The notes under the pieces are model-generated. The model had not been told where the DNA came from. It ran no database searches and worked only from the letters and a program-made list of their open reading frames with translations. The translations under genes and the position numbers were made by a program. A DNA stretch of 64,000 bases from an uncultured Woeseiaceae bacterium (lineage in GTDB: Bacteria; Pseudomonadota; Gammaproteobacteria; Steroidobacterales; Woeseiaceae): assembly GCA_964615665.1 (NCBI GenBank), contig CAZTQL010000001.1, positions 7,977-71,976 on the forward strand, written 5' to 3'. This document shows, piece by piece, positions 52,671 to 60,811 of this stretch. The stretch's first letter is position 1. Each line of letters opens with the position of its first letter.

Positions 52671-54926
52671 ATGAGCCGTCCATTCGACCCCCGATCTAAA
52701 ATTTTGAGCCTTCTATGCGCATCCGCATTACTGTTCGCATGCAGTGGAGATACGGGCCCGACGGGCCCGGCCGGAGCGTCTGGTTCAACCGGTTCGACCG
52801 GACCCGGCGGATCCACCGGCTCGACAGGCGGCACCGTGTCCGCTTTGGTACCGATCCAGTCGGTGGAAAAAATCAACGTGTCGTACGACAGCGTAGCGAT
52901 TGAGGCCGGCGGCCAGGCTCCCGACATCTTAATGCGCCTGACGGACGATTTCGGCTTCGGGATCACCGGTCTGCCGGCGGCAAGCGTGGGCTTTACGTTG
53001 GCACAGCTTTCGCCAGGCCAGGACGGTGGTTCGAGCGAATGGCAGTCATACGTGACGCGCAACAGCGCCGGAATTGAGAACGCGCAGGCAACAACGGAAT
53101 CGGCCGGCGCAGGCAGCTTCACGGATAACGGCGACGGCACCTATACCTATGTCTTCGCACAGAACCTGCCCGACTATGCGGGCGGCCCCACATTCGACGC
53201 CAACAAGATTCACCGTCTCGGCGTGGAGATTCGCACCGATCGCGGCGGCTTCCTGCCCGAGAACATCCCGGCGAACAACGCACCGTTTGATTTTGTGCCG
53301 GCCGGCGGCAGCCCCGCCGATCTGGAGCAGCGACTTATTGTCAACAACGACGCCTGCAATGCCTGTCATGACAACCTCGAACTGCACGGTGAAGCGCGCT
53401 TCGATGTCGAGTATTGCGTGACCTGCCATAACCCCTACTCCGTCGATGGCGATACCGCCGACGAGCCGTGGGGCGGCTCGGTTGATATGACAGTGATGAT
53501 CCACAAGATTCACTTTGGCGTGAATCTGACCAACGGTTACCGAGTTGTTGGGTACGGTGGCTTTGAGCACGACTACTCCGACGTCGAATTTCCGCAGGAC
53601 GTACGCAACTGCACAACCTGCCACCAGGAATCGAACGACGCGGTACCGCAAGCCAGCAACTGGCGCACCGTGCAGAACCGCGCCGCCTGTGGCACCTGCC
53701 ATGACGACATCGACTGGGAAGGCGGCACGCATCCGGGTGGCTTTGTCTTCACAGACGACCTGCAATGTCAGGATTGTCACGATGACACCGCTCCGGCGAC
53801 TGAGGCTAAACTCCGGGTCTCCGAAGCGCATGCCCAGCCCAATCGCGAGGCTAGCGAACGATTCGCTTACAACATCCTGGATATCAGTGAGACCGACGTC
53901 GGAGACTTCCCGGTGATCCAGTACTCGGTCACCGACCCAACCAACGGCGACGCGCCTTACGATCTTCTAGGCGATCCGGAATGGACCGTTTGTGGCCCGG
54001 CCCGACTGGCTGTAGGCATTGCCTGGGATACGGCCGACTATCACAATAACGATAGCGGCAACGCCCCGGGCCTGGGCGTATCGATGAACGCGATCAACTG
54101 TTTCGGTGGTTCTCCTGCCGACCTCGGTGCCGGTGTGTTTAGCGTCACTTCACCGGTTGCCGTACCTGCCACCGCCGGTGGGTCGCTCGCGGTAACCATT
54201 GACGGGCATCCCGCGGTCGATATCGGCGGCACGCTCGAGCGGATCGCCGTGACCAATGCCGTGGCCTATGCGGCAATAACGGACGCCACAGCCAAGCCAC
54301 GCCGCAACGCGGTCGCCATTGAAAAGTGCGACGACTGCCATAGTCAGCTGGCGATACATGGCAATAACCGCACGGACAACATCGAGGTTTGTGTGACCTG
54401 TCATGCGCCGAATGCCACCGATGTCAACCAACGTGGCGGCGACTGCGAAACTGACCTTGGTCTCGATGATTCGTCGATTGACATGAAGTACATGATCCAT
54501 GCGATCCACGCGTCTGGGACCATTGAAGTTCCTTACGAGGTTTGCGGATTCGGCAACTCAACCCACGTGTATGACTTTGTTTACCCGGGCAAGCTGAACA
54601 ATTGCGAAGGCTGCCATGTCCCGGGCGGCTATTACCCGGTTGATCCGAGCAATGTACTTGGCACGACCGTCGATACTGGCCCGGACAAGACCACGCCAAT
54701 GGATGACAAGGTCGTATCGCCGAACTCGTCTGTCTGCTCGTCCTGTCATACGAGCACGCTTGCGGCGAATCACATGACCCAGAACGGTGGTGACTTCGAT
54801 GCGAGAAAATCCGCGGACAGCACGCTGATATCGTCCGGCGCAGAGACCTGCGAACTCTGCCACGGAGAAGGCCGTCAGTCGGATGTCAAGGTAGTGCACG
54901 GTATCGAAGCGTTCGAGTTCAACTAA
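52671..54926 (+). CDS. mtrC: OmcA/MtrC-family outer-surface decaheme cytochrome c lipoprotein
   Basis: 751 aa with lipobox LLFACSG and 10 CXXCH motifs in a 5+5 arrangement split by a heme-free region of about 180 aa. The overall layout (heme-free N-terminal domain, pentaheme, heme-free, pentaheme) matches MtrC. It is followed by mtrA and mtrB. Confidence 0.88.
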   Translation: MSRPFDPRSKILSLLCASALLFACSGDTGPTGPAGASGSTGSTGPGGSTGSTGGTVSALVPIQSVEKINVSYDSVAIEAGGQAPDILMRLTDDFGFGITGLPAASVGFTLAQLSPGQDGGSSEWQSYVTRNSAGIENAQATTESAGAGSFTDNGDGTYTYVFAQNLPDYAGGPTFDANKIHRLGVEIRTDRGGFLPENIPANNAPFDFVPAGGSPADLEQRLIVNNDACNACHDNLELHGEARFDVEYCVTCHNPYSVDGDTADEPWGGSVDMTVMIHKIHFGVNLTNGYRVVGYGGFEHDYSDVEFPQDVRNCTTCHQESNDAVPQASNWRTVQNRAACGTCHDDIDWEGGTHPGGFVFTDDLQCQDCHDDTAPATEAKLRVSEAHAQPNREASERFAYNILDISETDVGDFPVIQYSVTDPTNGDAPYDLLGDPEWTVCGPARLAVGIAWDTADYHNNDSGNAPGLGVSMNAINCFGGSPADLGAGVFSVTSPVAVPATAGGSLAVTIDGHPAVDIGGTLERIAVTNAVAYAAITDATAKPRRNAVAIEKCDDCHSQLAIHGNNRTDNIEVCVTCHAPNATDVNQRGGDCETDLGLDDSSIDMKYMIHAIHASGTIEVPYEVCGFGNSTHVYDFVYPGKLNNCEGCHVPGGYYPVDPSNVLGTTVDTGPDKTTPMDDKVVSPNSSVCSSCHTSTLAANHMTQNGGDFDARKSADSTLISSGAETCELCHGEGRQSDVKVVHGIEAFEFN

Positions 54927-55879
54927 TGGCGACATTAGTTACTCGTCGCGGCTGGCTTAGCCTGCCCGTGCTGATGATGGCTCTCGTGGCCATCGCAGCG
55001 CCGGCCACGTCGTTGGCCCAGGATGACGAAGCGCCAAGCTATAGTAAGGAAGGCGCGGACACCTGCTTCAAATGCCATGACGATCAAGTCGTGTTGGGCG
55101 TATTTCGCACCAAGCATGCGGTACCGACGGATCCAAACTCCCCGTTTGGGCACGGCCAGTTGCAGTGCGAAGCGTGCCACGGTCCTGGCGGCGACCACTC
55201 CGGGCGCGTGCGCCGCGGTAAGGAACGGCCGGTTATGGTGCGCTTTGGCTCCGATAGCGGCACGCCGGTGCCCGAGCAGAACTCATACTGCCTGGACTGT
55301 CATTTGCCCGATGCCGGGTTCGCCTGGCACGGGAGCGCTCACGACGACAACACGGTCGCCTGCGCCGACTGCCATGACAGCCACGTCGAACGTGACCCGG
55401 TCCTCGCAACAACGACTCAGGCCGAGGTTTGCTTCGACTGCCATCAGCAGCAACGCACCGCGTCGATGAAACCGTACGCGCACCCACTGCGTGACGGCAA
55501 AATGACATGCACCGGCTGCCACAACACGCATGGCGATACGACCGAGCTGCTGCTGGCCCGCACAACCACCAATCAGACCTGCTTCGACTGTCACGCAGAA
55601 AAACGCGGGCCCTACCTCTGGGAACATGCGCCTGCTGCCGAGGACTGCGGCAACTGTCACGATCCGCACGGCTCCAACCATCCGGGCATGCTGTCGAAGC
55701 GCGCTCCGCTACTCTGCCAGAGCTGCCATTCACAGGACGGCCATCCGAGCCTGCCGCAGGATGAACGTGGCCTGCCATCCGGCACGGCCTCTCGATTCCT
55801 GCTGGGTCAGAGCTGTCTCAACTGCCATGAACAGGTGCACGGATCGAACCATCCGTCCGGCACCAAGCTAATGCGCTAG
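54926..55879 (+). CDS. mtrA: MtrA/DmsE-family periplasmic decaheme cytochrome c
   Basis: 317 aa with a signal peptide and 10 CXXCH motifs at high density (CFKCH, CEACH, CLDCH, CADCH, CFDCH, CTGCH, CFDCH, CGNCH, CQSCH, CLNCH). The ATG overlaps the mtrC stop (TAATG). Confidence 0.92.
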   Translation: MATLVTRRGWLSLPVLMMALVAIAAPATSLAQDDEAPSYSKEGADTCFKCHDDQVVLGVFRTKHAVPTDPNSPFGHGQLQCEACHGPGGDHSGRVRRGKERPVMVRFGSDSGTPVPEQNSYCLDCHLPDAGFAWHGSAHDDNTVACADCHDSHVERDPVLATTTQAEVCFDCHQQQRTASMKPYAHPLRDGKMTCTGCHNTHGDTTELLLARTTTNQTCFDCHAEKRGPYLWEHAPAAEDCGNCHDPHGSNHPGMLSKRAPLLCQSCHSQDGHPSLPQDERGLPSGTASRFLLGQSCLNCHEQVHGSNHPSGTKLMR

Positions 55880-55891
55880 GAGCGTCGTGCG

Positions 55892-58012
55892 ATGTTGAAT
55901 AGAACGAACCGATTCACTCCTGCTCTCTTCGCGCTGTTGCCGCTTCTGGCGCCGGGCATTGGCATCGCCGAAGTCGACACCAGCGACTGGAAGTGTGAGT
56001 CGTGCCCGTTTGATGACGGCTACCGGGCCAATGTCAGCGCGGGCGCTACCTACGTCGGCGAGGATGGCGCTATTCGCTTCGGCAGCGCCACCGGGTATGA
56101 CGACAAGGGCGGCTACGCCAATGTCGACGGCCAGGGACGCTACGTCAGCGACGGCTACCGGCTCGACTGGACCCTCGAAGATCTTGGCCTCGACTCGCGC
56201 GTCTTCACTCTGGACGCCGGTCGTCAAGGTAGCTTCGGCGTGCACGTGGGTTATCGAGAGCTGCCCTACTGGCAATTCGATTCGACGCGGACTGTTTTCA
56301 ATTCCTCCACGTCCGACACGCTCACATTACCCTCCGACTGGGTGCCGGCAGGCCTGACCTCGGACATGACGCGGCTGTCATCGTCGCTGCGTCGACAAAA
56401 CATTGGCAGCGACCGGCAGATCATGGACATTGGGGGGGACTGGCAGCCGGCTGAGGCCTTCCGACTGTACGCCGACTTCCAACGCCAGAATCGGGATGGC
56501 ATCGACATTACCGCCGGCTCGAGCTACACGCAGGCGTCTCTGCTGCCGCGCTGGATCGATTACGAGACCGACCAGATCGACGCTGGCATCCGGTATGGCA
56601 CAGCTCGCTCAAGTCTGACGCTGGCGTATTTCGGCTCGTCTTTTACGAACCAGAACCCATCGATCACCTGGGACACGCCGTTTACCTCCGGCCCCGGCAC
56701 TGAGCAGCTGCGGGCAGCAACAGCGCCGGAAAACGAGTTCCAGCAGATCTCGCTGTCGGGTGCGTACCGCGCAACGATGTGGGACACCGTCCTTGCCTTC
56801 TCACTGGCGTCCGGCACCGGCAAACAAAACGAGACTTTCCTGCCTTACACGATCAACCCGAACGTGGGCGCGGGCGCGCTGCCGAAGAACTCTCTCGACG
56901 GCAAAGTCGACACGAGCAACTATGCGCTGACCGTAACGTCACGACCGTTTCCGAAGGCCCGGGTAAAACTCTCTTACCGCTATGACGACCGCGACAACAA
57001 GACGCCGCAGTCCGAATGGAACCGTGTCGTCGTCGACGTTTTCCAGGTCACAGATACCGAGCAGAATATACCTTACAGTTTCGAACGCTCGGCATTCTCG
57101 CTGAGTGGCGAGCTGTTGGTCTGGAAAGGCATTCGCGTTTCTGGTGGCTGGGATCGCAAAGAACTGAATCGCGATTATCAGGAGGTAGCGGAACAGACGA
57201 CTGACGCCGGCTGGGGACAGGCGAGCTGGAAACCGCTGGCGTGGCTCGACCTGCGCATTAAAGGCGGCGCGTCAGAACGTGACATTGATCGCTATAACGA
57301 AACACTTGCCGTCAGCTTCGGCCAGAACCCGCTGATGCGGAAATACAATCTGGCGTATCGCTACCGCAGCTACGGAGAGTTGAACGCGTCCATCACACCG
57401 GTTGAATCGCCGATCTCCCTCAGCACAACGGTTCTGTATGCCGACGATCGCTACAACCGATCCCAGCTGGGCATGACTGACAGCGAAGAGGTACGAGCAA
57501 CGGCTGACTTGAACTGGGCCGTCACTGACAACACCAGTTTTTTCCTGATGTACGGCTATGAAGACATCGATGCGCTGCAGCTTGGTTCCGAGCAAAACGG
57601 CTACTGGGATTGGAGCGCAAAACATGAAGACAGCTTCGACCATGTGGGCGGTGGTTTTCGCTGGCGCCAGGCCGAAGGCAAGCTCGATCTGCGCGTCGAC
57701 TTCAACCGCGGCAGTGGCAAGACGACGGTCGATCTCTTTAGTGTGAGTGGTGGAGAAAGCCGCCTGCCAGACCTGGAATCGACGCTCGACTCAGCGCGCG
57801 TCGAAGCGCGCTATCGCTGGAGCGAGCGTGTCGACGCTACGTTCGACTTGCGCTACGAGAGCTTTGAGGTTGACGACTACGCGCTGGTATCGCCCTCGAC
57901 AGTATCAACCGTGCTGACTCTGGGCGCCGAGCCCTACGACTACAAGGTATGGGCGGTGGGTTTCGGGATACGCTACAGCTTTGGCGGCGGTGAGATTACG
58001 TTAGCCGAATAG
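55892..58012 (+). CDS. mtrB: MtrB/PioB-family outer-membrane beta-barrel porin
   Basis: 706 aa with a signal peptide and the N-terminal CxxC motif (DWKCESCPF) known from Shewanella MtrB. The rest has an alternating beta-strand pattern rich in Y/W/D/R, with a C-terminal aromatic residue four positions from the end (...YSFGGGEITLAE). Confidence 0.88.
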   Translation: MLNRTNRFTPALFALLPLLAPGIGIAEVDTSDWKCESCPFDDGYRANVSAGATYVGEDGAIRFGSATGYDDKGGYANVDGQGRYVSDGYRLDWTLEDLGLDSRVFTLDAGRQGSFGVHVGYRELPYWQFDSTRTVFNSSTSDTLTLPSDWVPAGLTSDMTRLSSSLRRQNIGSDRQIMDIGGDWQPAEAFRLYADFQRQNRDGIDITAGSSYTQASLLPRWIDYETDQIDAGIRYGTARSSLTLAYFGSSFTNQNPSITWDTPFTSGPGTEQLRAATAPENEFQQISLSGAYRATMWDTVLAFSLASGTGKQNETFLPYTINPNVGAGALPKNSLDGKVDTSNYALTVTSRPFPKARVKLSYRYDDRDNKTPQSEWNRVVVDVFQVTDTEQNIPYSFERSAFSLSGELLVWKGIRVSGGWDRKELNRDYQEVAEQTTDAGWGQASWKPLAWLDLRIKGGASERDIDRYNETLAVSFGQNPLMRKYNLAYRYRSYGELNASITPVESPISLSTTVLYADDRYNRSQLGMTDSEEVRATADLNWAVTDNTSFFLMYGYEDIDALQLGSEQNGYWDWSAKHEDSFDHVGGGFRWRQAEGKLDLRVDFNRGSGKTTVDLFSVSGGESRLPDLESTLDSARVEARYRWSERVDATFDLRYESFEVDDYALVSPSTVSTVLTLGAEPYDYKVWAVGFGIRYSFGGGEITLAE

Positions 58013-58136
58013 GCCGGGCTTCGAACCCCGCACCTGAATCTACCGGGCCCCTTTCCTTTCAATATCTTGCGACGGCGGCGATTGGTGGAGTTTTACGGAA
58101 GATCAGTCCTTTCACTAACAGCATTCGGAGAAACAA

Positions 58137-58424
58137 ATGGCGAACGAGGGCTATCACGAACCAATTCAAGAACTCTCAGATGAGACGCGAGACATGCACC
58201 GAGCCATCACTTCTCTGATGGAGGAGCTGGAGGCCGTCGATTGGTATAACCAGAGAGTTGAAGCCTGTAAGGACAAGAACCTTAAAGCCATCCTTGCTCA
58301 CAATCGCGATGAAGAAAAGGAACACGCGGCCATGGTGTTGGAATGGATTCGCCGCAGTGACCCAACGTTTGACAAGGAATTGAAGGATTATCTTTTTACG
58401 GATAAACCTATCGTTCACGTGTAG
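58137..58424 (+). CDS. encapsulated-ferritin-fold (EncFtn-like) protein lacking a cargo-targeting tail
   Basis: 95 aa. HEPIQELSDETRDMHRAITSLMEELEAVDWYNQRV...ILAHNRDEEKEHAAMVLEWIRR closely parallels the EncFtn core. That core is recalled from the Rhodospirillum rubrum protein, with ferroxidase ligands in the EELEA and EEKEH motifs. The protein ends right after the core. Confidence 0.8.
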   Translation: MANEGYHEPIQELSDETRDMHRAITSLMEELEAVDWYNQRVEACKDKNLKAILAHNRDEEKEHAAMVLEWIRRSDPTFDKELKDYLFTDKPIVHV

Positions 58425-58592
58425 CTTAGAAAATGGCCGCTTATGGCTGCCTATCAAAGCGATGAATATTGCGGCACGTGAACGGCCGCTCTTGGTGAGA
58501 GCAGACGTTAGCCTTTTGCTCGATGGCTTAGCGAAAACGTAGCGATTGTACAAAGCTTGGCGGGTTTGGGTCGAATTTCTACTGTTACTTCT

Positions 58593-59636
58593 TCAAGCCT
58601 GCATGGCATCGCCGGGTGCCCGCCGGGCGATGTTCAGTTTCTTCTCCAGGAATTTCCTGAATGCCGGTTTCGCTGTGGGATCAATGATGTTGATGCCGCG
58701 CAGACCGGTGAGCTTCCAGACCAATTCAACGGCTGCCGACGTCGTGGTCGCAGGGCCGGTCACCAGATCCGGCGTCAGACCAAAGGCTCTTTGTACGCCA
58801 ACGACAGCATACGGATCAGACGCGCAAAGGATCGTACACACGACGTTATCGCCAAGCTCGTCCATCAGCGCCGCGCCATTGTACGGCTCAAGTGGTGACG
58901 CGCCCGCTTCGACAACGAGCAGGTCCGGCGCGCGTTCGTTAATGTGGTTTAACAGTGGCCGAATGGCGCGACGAAACTCCTCCTCCGGCACGATCGTTGA
59001 CGGTAACCCGGCGTCGACAAAATCGTAGATTTCTCTGGCGCCGGTTTTTGAATAACTGAGAATATCCCGGTAGCGGCCGGCGCCAGTAAGTTTGGTACCG
59101 ATGACAAACAACCCCGCACGATCCAGCTCTTTACAAACCCGTCGGCCGGCGGTTGTCTTGCCCGCCGACATCGATGTACCCACAAGCAGCAACGTGGGTA
59201 CGGCAAACTCGTGCGACGTTGCCGTTATCGCGAAGTCGCGCATACGAATCTTGGCGCCCTGCCGACACAGATGCCCTCGGTAGATCAATCCCAGGGGTTC
59301 CGGATACAATGTCGAATATGACGTGAAGCGCGCCATCAGTCCGGCGCTGGTCAGCGCGTGCATCTGGCCATCGTCACCGATCTTGCGCCAACTGCCGACT
59401 CCCTCGAGGGTTGCCGCGCGATCACCAAGAGCACCGACGACCCAATCGCCAGGTTCCACCTTGACCATATGACCCTGCCGATCCTCGATTTTGTAGAGGT
59501 CGGTCGGAATTCCCGCGACTTCTCCTTCCACATAGTCGCCCGTTGCCCATTTCGACCGATCAAGCTTTACAATGTCGAAGTTGCTGTTCGCAAAGTCCGC
59601 AATTCTCGACAGCGATCCGTAAACGCGGCTACTCAT
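58593..59636 (-). CDS. P-loop (Walker A) protein of unknown function, possibly DUF1611-like
   Basis: 347 aa with a central Walker A motif LLVGTSMSAGKTTAG. The N-terminal 150 aa are not recognisable. The stop overlaps the start of nothing, and its start overlaps the upstream M20 gene stop by 4 bp. Confidence 0.45.
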   Translation of the reverse strand: MSSRVYGSLSRIADFANSNFDIVKLDRSKWATGDYVEGEVAGIPTDLYKIEDRQGHMVKVEPGDWVVGALGDRAATLEGVGSWRKIGDDGQMHALTSAGLMARFTSYSTLYPEPLGLIYRGHLCRQGAKIRMRDFAITATSHEFAVPTLLLVGTSMSAGKTTAGRRVCKELDRAGLFVIGTKLTGAGRYRDILSYSKTGAREIYDFVDAGLPSTIVPEEEFRRAIRPLLNHINERAPDLLVVEAGASPLEPYNGAALMDELGDNVVCTILCASDPYAVVGVQRAFGLTPDLVTGPATTTSAAVELVWKLTGLRGINIIDPTAKPAFRKFLEKKLNIARRAPGDAMQA

Positions 59637-60811
59637 GACTGGCCTCCGTGATTGCCAAGCGGCGGCTCGATTAACAACATCGTCAACAATGCAGCACGCT
59701 CGAGTGTCTTACCGATCAGCAGGTGTTCGTGCGCGGCATGCGCGCCATCGCCAACCGGCCCGAGACCATCGAGTGTTGCGGTGTACTGGCTCGTTGTGTT
59801 GCCGTCGGAACCACCCCCGGTACGGACCTCGGTCAGGTCGAGCCCGAGTGCGGCGCCGCTCTCTTTCGCGATCTCCCAAAGCCGGCGATTGCGCGGCGTT
59901 GCTTCCATCGACGGACGGCCGATTGCACCGTCGATGTGGAGGCGTACGTTGGGCGTTGCCGGCTTCAGGCTATGGATACGACGTTCGATTTCTGCGCCGG
60001 CAGCAAGCGTCGGCACCCTGACGTCGACCACGGCTTTGCTGTGCGGTGCAATCACGTTCGGCTGAATGCCACCATCAATGGTGCCCACGTTTACCGTGAC
60101 CCCTTTTTTCACATCGTTCATGGTAAATAGCGCCTGAATGACGTGCGCCAGTTCGAGAATGGCGCTGGCTCCGGCTTCGGGATCCAGTCCGGCATGGGCC
60201 GCCTTGCCATGCACCGTGATGGTGAAACGACCGATGCCTTTGCGCTCCGTTTTCAATGCACCCTGTGCGCCGAGCGCCGGCTCCATAACCAGCGCCCGAT
60301 CAGCGCGTGAGGCGAGTCGTCGAATGTAGCGCGTTGAGCTGCGACTACCGATCTCCTCGTCGCAATTAACAAACACGACGGGCACGACCGGCGTTGCGAG
60401 CTCGAGATCGCGAATCGTGCGCAGCGCAAGAACTATCTGCGCAAGTCCGCCCTTCATATCGAAGGACCCCGGTCCATGAATAATGTCACCGTCGACAGTG
60501 AACGGCCGCGTGGCCAAAGTTCCAACCGGCCAGACCGTGTCGTAGTGGCCAATCAATAGCTGCAACGGTTGGCCTCGGGTCCTTTCAGCGGGCCGGGCAA
60601 ACACGTGGCGAGCTGTGTCCGCAAAACCCGTTTCGCGCGACTCATAGCCAGCCGCTGCCAGCGCCAGCCGCAGGATACGACGCGCTTCGTCGTGCGTCTC
60701 GGGATGCGCTGAAGGTGATTCCGCTTCGACGAGGTCCTTGATCAGACCAATCAGCGACGCTCTTTGCCCGTGGACGTACTCGAGAACCCTGGTCGCGGTG
60801 TTTGTAAGCAT
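59633..60811 (-). CDS. M20-family metallopeptidase (carboxypeptidase G2 / glutamate carboxypeptidase-like)
   Basis: 392 aa. Motifs LLIGHYDTVWP, GPGSFDMKGG and NCDEEIGS are M20 metal-ligand and catalytic motifs. Confidence 0.82.
   Translation of the reverse strand: MLTNTATRVLEYVHGQRASLIGLIKDLVEAESPSAHPETHDEARRILRLALAAAGYESRETGFADTARHVFARPAERTRGQPLQLLIGHYDTVWPVGTLATRPFTVDGDIIHGPGSFDMKGGLAQIVLALRTIRDLELATPVVPVVFVNCDEEIGSRSSTRYIRRLASRADRALVMEPALGAQGALKTERKGIGRFTITVHGKAAHAGLDPEAGASAILELAHVIQALFTMNDVKKGVTVNVGTIDGGIQPNVIAPHSKAVVDVRVPTLAAGAEIERRIHSLKPATPNVRLHIDGAIGRPSMEATPRNRRLWEIAKESGAALGLDLTEVRTGGGSDGNTTSQYTATLDGLGPVGDGAHAAHEHLLIGKTLERAALLTMLLIEPPLGNHGGQS

Follow-up and report, generated by a model that had tools for sequence, protein, structure and literature searches.

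When an EncFtn-fold ferritin is encapsulated, published work has found that the protein ring oxidises Fe(II) and that the shell is needed to keep the mineral soluble. An EncFtn-fold gene that lies directly downstream of mtrB, with no shell gene beside it, raises the question of what such a protein does on its own and whether its position has any bearing on that. We examined such a gene in a stretch of 64,000 nucleotides (here, the window) from the genome of an uncultured Woeseiaceae bacterium. The first-pass annotation of this DNA had proposed a shell-independent ferroxidase or iron buffer, placed beside an iron-respiring or iron-oxidising apparatus and perhaps acquired horizontally. We consider it highly probable that the product is a cytoplasmic, shell-independent ferroxidase ring, that it belongs to a clade descended from one loss of the targeting peptide (TP) and that its Mtr neighbourhood is incidental.

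The gene occupies positions 58137–58424 of the forward strand, an open reading frame of 95 codons with an ATG start and a Shine–Dalgarno sequence, GGAG (58127–58130, +), 6 nt 5' of the ATG. Its identification as an EncFtn-fold protein held up well: the product matched the EncFtn-like profile PF22277 at 152.7 bits (cutoff 27; profile positions 2–85 of 85) and TIGR04535 at 140.3 bits (cutoff 125), while the profile for Ftn, Bfr and Dps cages (PF00210) gave no match at E ≤ 0.01. The TIGR04535 match covered only positions 1–88 of 114, so the linker and targeting-peptide section of that model has no counterpart in the window protein. A signal peptide was likewise absent. The best structural match in the PDB was 3K6C (E = 4e-51; 81 of 94 residues identical), the ‘uncharacterized protein NE0167’ of Nitrosomonas europaea, which is also 95 amino acids long and has ten chains in the entry. 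What the first-pass annotation had described at the locus was right on all points, its hand count of GC included; the motifs that it named are present as residues 28–37 (MEELEAVDWY) and 57–63 (RDEEKEH), and the product does end in LFTDKPIVHV.

Proteins of this kind have been named before. The review of Eren et al. 2024 (PMC11202242) calls them s-FLPs, short encapsulated-ferritin-like proteins in which a targeting peptide is not apparent, gives 3K6C as their type structure and lists the tail consensus LFTD(E/N)KPIAHE (its Table 2). The window gene is an ordinary member of this class, by its profile and structure matches and by its place in the tree described below. NE0167 shares with it the length, a start of the form MAN-GY-EP, an end of the form LFT-KPI-H-, the ExxH and EELEAVD motifs, the absence of a targeting peptide and a gene that stands alone; the window protein differs in having W36 and M28, as in canonical EncFtn, where NE0167 has L and R, and V93 and V95 in the tail, where NE0167 has A and a charged residue. 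The term ‘orphan’, used earlier for this gene, overstates the protein's singularity because the s-FLP class was already in the literature. Our literature search found no paper with functional data on an s-FLP, and 3K6C is an unpublished apo structure.

We compared the metal-site residues with the encapsulated EncFtn of Rhodospirillum rubrum (Rru_A0973; 5DA5), to which the window protein aligns with an offset of two residues. Within the codons for E29, E30, E32, W36 and Y37 (58221–58247, +), E29, E32 and W36 match the entry-site residues E31, E34 and W38 of the R. rubrum protein, and E30 and Y37 match its ferroxidase-centre residues E32 and Y39. The ExxH motif E60-K61-E62-H63 (58314–58325, +) supplies E60 and H63, which match E62 and H65 of the same centre. 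These seven residues (E29, E30, E32, W36, Y37, E60 and H63) were invariant in all 98 homologues of our conservation set, the sequences of which were taken from their loci via tblastn coordinates. The cores of Rru_A0973 and of the Haliangium ochraceum EncFtn (5N5F/7OE2), members of the same fold family with the same ferroxidase-centre and entry-site residues, are collinear with the window protein over approximately 90 residues (E ~1e-33). Both differ from it in carrying a linker of 20–45 residues and a targeting peptide of the ...SLGIGSLK type, neither of which the window protein has, and in being encoded directly beside the Family 1 shell that they need for iron storage.

The absence of a targeting peptide, claimed at the outset from the abrupt C-terminus, was confirmed by the TIGR04535 match and by comparison of tails. 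The tail LFTDKPIVHV (codons 58392–58421, +) corresponds to a family consensus across the 98 homologues, LFTDKPIAH-x, that marks the end of the conserved core, and the window protein stops three residues past ...KPI. Nine genomes in a sample described below hold both forms, a short copy distant from any shell and a separate shell-adjacent paralog, and short and long copies were compared in five of them. The five short copies, all away from shells, are 95–100 amino acids long and end in ...KPIAH-x or similar, whereas all 15 shell-adjacent paralogs examined are 118–144 amino acids long, with an acidic or Gly-rich linker and a ...(L/F)T(V/I)GSLK... motif (peptide types LTVGSLKE-, LGIGSLK- and FTIGSLKK-). 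The targeting-peptide motif ...(L/F)x(V/I)GSL(K/R)... is missing from the window protein and from all five distant short copies.

A shell elsewhere in the genome could still make the protein a cargo. We searched the genome for one, as had been proposed before the analysis began, and neither PF04454 (Family 1 shell) nor PF05065 (HK97 capsid) was found in the window's metagenome-assembled genome (MAG; 2.75 Mb, 205 contigs, 84% complete). Nor was a shell protein found beside the gene, the neighbours of which are mtrB and a convergent P-loop gene. At 84% completeness this MAG alone is indecisive on the shell, and we therefore examined the whole clade. PF04454 was absent from 13 of 14 relatives carrying the gene, five of the 13 being at least 96% complete, and from 49 of 50 named carrier genomes, among them the complete genomes of Halioglobus sp. 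Uisw_031 and Methylotuvimicrobium sp. KM1, two closed MAG chromosomes and several isolates.

For an even sample of the window's class we took 399 genomes, all at least 90% complete, scoring a match of at least 75% identity as a short-form copy and a position within 1.5 kb of PF04454 as shell-adjacent. The short form was present as 76 copies in 75 of the 399 genomes (19%); no copy of the 76 was shell-adjacent, and 66 of the 75 carriers (88%) had no shell anywhere. Matches at 45–69% identity gave a different result, 23 of 29 adjoining a shell. Every shell-bearing genome (23/23) had a separate, longer, TP-bearing EncFtn of lower identity beside its shell, and the search method therefore works. 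A search with PF19307 (Family 2 encapsulin) matched in no genome, control included. The proposed shell independence is thus borne out, and it belongs to the whole clade, not to the window locus specifically.

The s-FLP might nevertheless be an encapsulin cargo whose shell lies in the unassembled 16% of the MAG or belongs to an unrecognised family, with the KPI-A/V-H tail serving as a cryptic docking motif. The incompleteness of the MAG, the uninformative PF19307 search and the presence of a shell somewhere in nine of the 75 carriers speak for this, as does the speculation in PMC11202242 that KPIAH, conserved at the C-terminus, might act as a binding motif or targeting peptide. We regard it as very improbable, given the carriers without PF04454 at 90% completeness or more and in closed genomes, the provision of every shell with its own TP-bearing copy, the lack of any conserved neighbour of the short copy in 72 loci and the absence of an HK97-fold gene from what is assembled of the window's genome; moreover, TP-bearing forms have the tail up to ...LFTxxPI as well, where it closes the core domain. 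PMC11202242 leaves the encapsulation of s-FLPs open, and the absence of shell-adjacent copies together with the 88% of carriers lacking a shell argues for truly shell-free proteins.

Two observations concern genomes in which a shell does occur. Shells were commoner in short-form carriers (9/75) than in non-carriers (14/324; Fisher p = 0.02, relatedness not corrected), and in all nine of these carriers the shell has its own TP-bearing copy; there is room for some interplay between short form and shell where both exist. Separately, a shell-adjacent, TP-bearing EncFtn of 130 amino acids (G163:C86:23717-24876; L147) shares 74% identity with the window protein and, over its N-terminal half, closely resembles an s-FLP. 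Among encapsulated forms it is therefore a candidate for the nearest relative that the short clade has.

The short form is common and highly conserved. A protein search with the window sequence returned at least 8,000 matches, the best 120 of which were 73–93% identical and mostly exactly 95 amino acids long, and relatives are encoded in at least 592 species-level genomes. The best 80 carriers include Hahella, Psychromonas, Halioglobus, Chromatiaceae, Nitrotoga, Methylotuvimicrobium and two Woeseiaceae MAGs, as well as MAGs labelled Zetaproteobacteria, Acidobacteria, Cyanobacteria and Actinobacteria. Among the 98 homologues, 86 are exactly 95 amino acids long and all start with ATG, with a mean pairwise identity of 87% (minimum 71%). 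The median difference from the window gene was 55% at third codon positions and 8.5% at positions 1 and 2; third positions so near saturation, set against so little change at the other two, indicate strong purifying selection on an old gene that has not recently spread.

In a maximum-likelihood tree, 52 short sequences, including the window protein, 3K6C and the copies far from shells, fell on one side of a branch with support 94/91, and midpoint rooting places them nested within the TP-bearing forms. The terminal branches measure approximately 0.1 in the short clade and 0.3–0.8 in the others, so that the window protein's clade evolves several times more slowly than TP-bearing EncFtn. The simplest reading of this tree is that the short clade may have lost the peptide a single time and then come under tighter constraint. 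An s-FLP could instead be the decaying remnant of an encapsulin operon, a cargo truncated after loss of its shell, since canonical cargo is longer and a fragmented shell beside a partial EncFtn does occur in the same order. From the conservation pattern we would call this effectively refuted: the length, the start codon and the ligands are intact across the homologues, non-synonymous change is very low, and a single clade with short branches persists in nearly a fifth of the sampled genomes. In the genome with the fragmented shell (G025:C72:12013-12649; L031, L033, L034), a Family 1 shell lies in two pieces (profile positions 1–52 and 154–230) adjoining a partial EncFtn match (residues 1–41); a different contig of this genome, C98, still has a short copy that is intact. 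The split shell and partial EncFtn look like a decaying encapsulin operon.

Having assigned the protein to a shell-free clade, we turn to its neighbours. Profile matches (TIGR03507, TIGR03508 and TIGR03509/PF11854 for mtrC, mtrA and mtrB) place an OmcA/MtrC-family decaheme cytochrome gene (mtrC, 52671–54926), a DmsE/MtrA-family decaheme cytochrome gene (mtrA, 54926–55879) and a gene for an MtrB/PioB porin (mtrB, 55892–58012, +; PF11854 433.8 bits, TIGR03509 377 bits) 5' of the s-FLP gene. The mtrB stop at 58012, the left boundary of the locus, is followed after 124 nt by the s-FLP ATG. The right boundary is a convergent gene for a 347-amino-acid P-loop protein (58593–59636, −), which has a weak DUF1611 match only and is not a shell protein; beyond it, likewise convergent to the s-FLP gene, is an M20 peptidase gene. 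The surroundings are thus as first described, with mtrB upstream and a convergent non-shell gene downstream. A segment of 580 bp (58013–58592; GC 0.497) separates the mtrB stop from that of the 347-amino-acid gene. It consists of the s-FLP gene with 124 nt on its 5' side and 168 nt on its 3' side; these flanks are unique in the genome.

The s-FLP might be an accessory of MtrCAB, co-transcribed with it and acting as an iron buffer or ferroxidase for the Fe(II) that extracellular electron transfer produces or consumes. The gene is on the same strand as mtrB, the + strand of the 58013–58592 segment showed neither a promoter nor a terminator consensus, and the iron chemistry of the two systems is thematically related. 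With accessory genes of mtr/mto clusters (for example mtoD, cymA and the mtrH/cbcL types) the s-FLP gene has in common its place directly 3' of mtrB on the same strand; it differs from them in lacking heme motifs and a signal peptide and in a linkage that is not conserved in relatives. MtrCAB, by contrast with a protein that has no signal peptide, acts in the periplasm and outer membrane.

The linkage itself proved peculiar to one genome. At none of the loci of the 14 relatives does mtrB, the 347-amino-acid gene or the M20 gene come within 1.5 kb of the EncFtn gene; ~180 kb separate EncFtn from mtrB in G017, and in G002, G012 and G018 the two do not share a contig. No Mtr homologue lies within 10 kb of the EncFtn gene at any of 91 further loci. 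Two genomes of the same genus, G021 and G002, have mtrB tail-to-tail with the same 347-amino-acid and M20 genes, and the EncFtn gene is not between them: the mtrB/347-amino-acid junction is an overlap of ~50 bp in G021 and a gap of 53 bp in G002, as against 580 bp in the window, and the EncFtn gene of G002 sits on another contig. At the level of whole genomes, MtrB is also present in seven of the ten EncFtn carriers of the genus, but this co-occurrence is not significant (7/3/6/8, p = 0.24). We therefore judge a role as an Mtr accessory to be highly unlikely, and the functional placement suggested by the first-pass annotation did not survive the comparison; the mtrB adjacency is incidental. 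Since the neighbourhood carries no functional message, the mtrCAB island is better interpreted without the s-FLP gene.

Part of the genus does show a stable neighbour of the mtr cluster, but a different one. The 347-amino-acid P-loop and M20 genes (window 58593–60811, −; L119 and L122 in the relatives) are kept together, at 75–78% identity, next to mtrB in G002 and G021, and it is this pair, not EncFtn, that accompanies the cluster. The 53-bp gap of G002 (L119:1445-1497) contains an A-run and, after it, a GC-rich hairpin, GCCCGGTGCGCACGCGCACCGGGC, which is likely to be a bidirectional terminator; no terminator-like element corresponding to it was found at the window junction, 58013–58592. Because no terminator is predicted after mtrB, read-through transcription from mtrCAB into the s-FLP gene is possible, and in the window's genome it might tie cytoplasmic Fe(II) detoxification to metal respiration.

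How the gene came to lie here is answered in part by synteny. The EncFtn gene is present in 10 of 24 members of the genus, at a site that differs in nearly every species, and the sites that it occupies in G012 and G036 are present but empty in the window's genome, just as the window's site is empty in G021 and G002. The comparison shows a lineage-specific arrival of the s-FLP gene at the window site, so that this part of the earlier suggestion of horizontal acquisition stands. Across 72 loci no conserved neighbour of the short EncFtn gene was found, the best reaching 7/72; the gene is a stand-alone cistron.

The other part of that suggestion, a foreign origin read from low GC, fared less well. 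The first 180 nt of the open reading frame have a GC content of exactly 0.500, in agreement with the approximately 50% counted by hand, and the whole frame (0.486) is distinct from the neighbouring genes (~0.60) and from the genome (0.578; z = −3.5), only 1% of the genome's own 95-codon gene windows being as low. The deficit sits mainly at the second codon position: GC1 (0.60) is unremarkable, GC2 is 0.295, with only 0.5% of windows lower, and GC3 (0.568 against a mean of 0.675) is only marginally low, near the 5th percentile. The protein has 22 Asp and Glu and 13 Lys and Arg among its 95 residues, and GC2 at 71 loci is 0.31 ± 0.02 irrespective of host. At these loci the EncFtn gene averages 4.2 points under the GC of its flanks, and its GC3 follows host GC (r = 0.91), the window copy lying 1.6 residual SD under the regression. 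Because GC2 depends on the amino acids encoded and does not change with the host, the low GC is a family trait, mostly compositional, with at most a weak extra signal in the window.

These values bear on the idea of a recent transfer from a donor of lower GC, with which the residual GC3 shift, the GC of the entire extra segment, the patchy presence in the genus and the variable, elsewhere empty sites are all consistent. We think it unlikely. The best DNA match to any sampled copy is 81%, covering the open reading frame and ~10 nt of ribosome-binding site (homology to other loci starts at 58126/58127), and the difference at third positions is never below 48%. No phage record matches the gene, plasmids gave only seven weak or partial matches, and neither mobile-element genes nor significant flanking repeats were found around it. 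One candidate target-site duplication was rejected: GGTGAGA..ACGTTAGCC at 57989–58006 and 58494–58513 brackets the gene, but equally high scores arise in 15% of shuffles and in 36% of real-sequence controls, which is within chance.

Upstream of 96 non-redundant loci, the only enriched motif was AGGAGA, the Shine–Dalgarno sequence. Boxes for Fur, PerR, Irr, OxyR, IscR and Zur scored no better there than in shuffled sequence, and the same was true of RpoH, RpoE and RpoS promoter motifs. No Rfam family exceeded threshold within 57900–58700 (a sub-threshold CRISPR-DR match had E = 0.51), and RNA structure downstream of the s-FLP gene was not significant (z = −0.39).

Homology to the encapsulated proteins suggests how the s-FLP would work. 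Each 95-residue subunit would form a two-helix hairpin; two chains would pair so that E30, Y37, E60 and H63 of both build a di-iron ferroxidase centre, and five such dimers would close into a ring-shaped decamer. The ten chains of 3K6C, 86% identical to the window protein, are a clue to this assembly, and PMC11202242 calls that structure a decamer. Such a ring would be expected to oxidise Fe(II) with O2 or H2O2. With neither a cavity nor a shell, it could not mineralise or store iron, and since the encapsulated ring needs its shell to keep the mineral soluble, a shell-free one is best seen as a catalytic ferroxidase or antioxidant, not a store. Most likely, then, the s-FLP would act as a soluble detoxifier of Fe(II) and peroxide, with the Fe(III) released or handed to other acceptors.

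We infer a corresponding history. An encapsulin cargo with a targeting peptide would have given rise to the s-FLP clade once, by loss of linker and peptide, and the clade would then have come under unusually strong purifying selection. It would have moved from one intergenic site to another, unrelated one, each time as a single cistron that brings a strong ribosome-binding site along, and in this Woeseiaceae genome appears to have landed between the convergent mtrB and 347-amino-acid P-loop genes. The abundance of s-FLPs (approximately 19% of sampled class genomes) and their 87% mean identity among widely differing bacteria, in proteins that would not store iron, point to another role, probably in the handling of iron or oxidative stress and one that is easy to assay. 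Rather more doubtful is a distinct shell-free job for the short clade, as a soluble ring scavenging Fe(II) and H2O2 or as a partner in iron hand-off; if true, it would explain the several-fold slower evolution, the coexistence with encapsulated paralogs and the retention of s-FLPs by about one-fifth of the class genomes.

The Ftn, Bfr and Dps cages (PF00210) share with s-FLPs the di-iron carboxylate ferroxidase chemistry and the ferritin-like superfamily. They differ in architecture: the s-FLP subunit is a two-helix hairpin that would complete a four-helix bundle only across the dimer, and the assembly would be a ring with no storage cavity. Bfr, Ftn and Dps were not found in the window's 84%-complete MAG, whereas 19 of 24 relatives of the same genus have one of them. 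Substitution of s-FLPs for these cages was considered, as cages were missing from 6 of 15 carriers among the relatives against 2 of 26 others (p = 0.035), but the difference was gone in the even class sample (23/75 carriers against 91/324 non-carriers, p = 0.67). The short gene's presence is thus independent of the cages, and we therefore do not claim substitution. The sole PF00210-like match in the window's genome (G000:C4:30522-30698; L136:1285-1704, minus strand) is a rubrerythrin-family protein of 139 amino acids (PF02915, 101 bits).

Three Burkholderiales MAG contigs (L013:4281-5877, L014 and L015) have a PNPOx/CREG-like flavin-binding gene 19 bp upstream of the short EncFtn gene and an Arg/Ala-rich gene of 269 amino acids (MRILGVDFTS...) 10 bp downstream. 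The 269-amino-acid gene was rejected as a conserved partner, being absent from other loci, and as a shell, since it has no Pfam, NCBIfam or PDB match and is not shell-like; the three genes may form a lineage-specific operon. Lastly, an antisense open reading frame of 125 amino acids (window 58176–58553, −) overlaps the EncFtn gene. Of 72 homologous loci, 16 have an equivalent antisense frame that is open. The most likely explanation is a shadow ORF, produced by constraint on the sense frame where the host is GC-rich.
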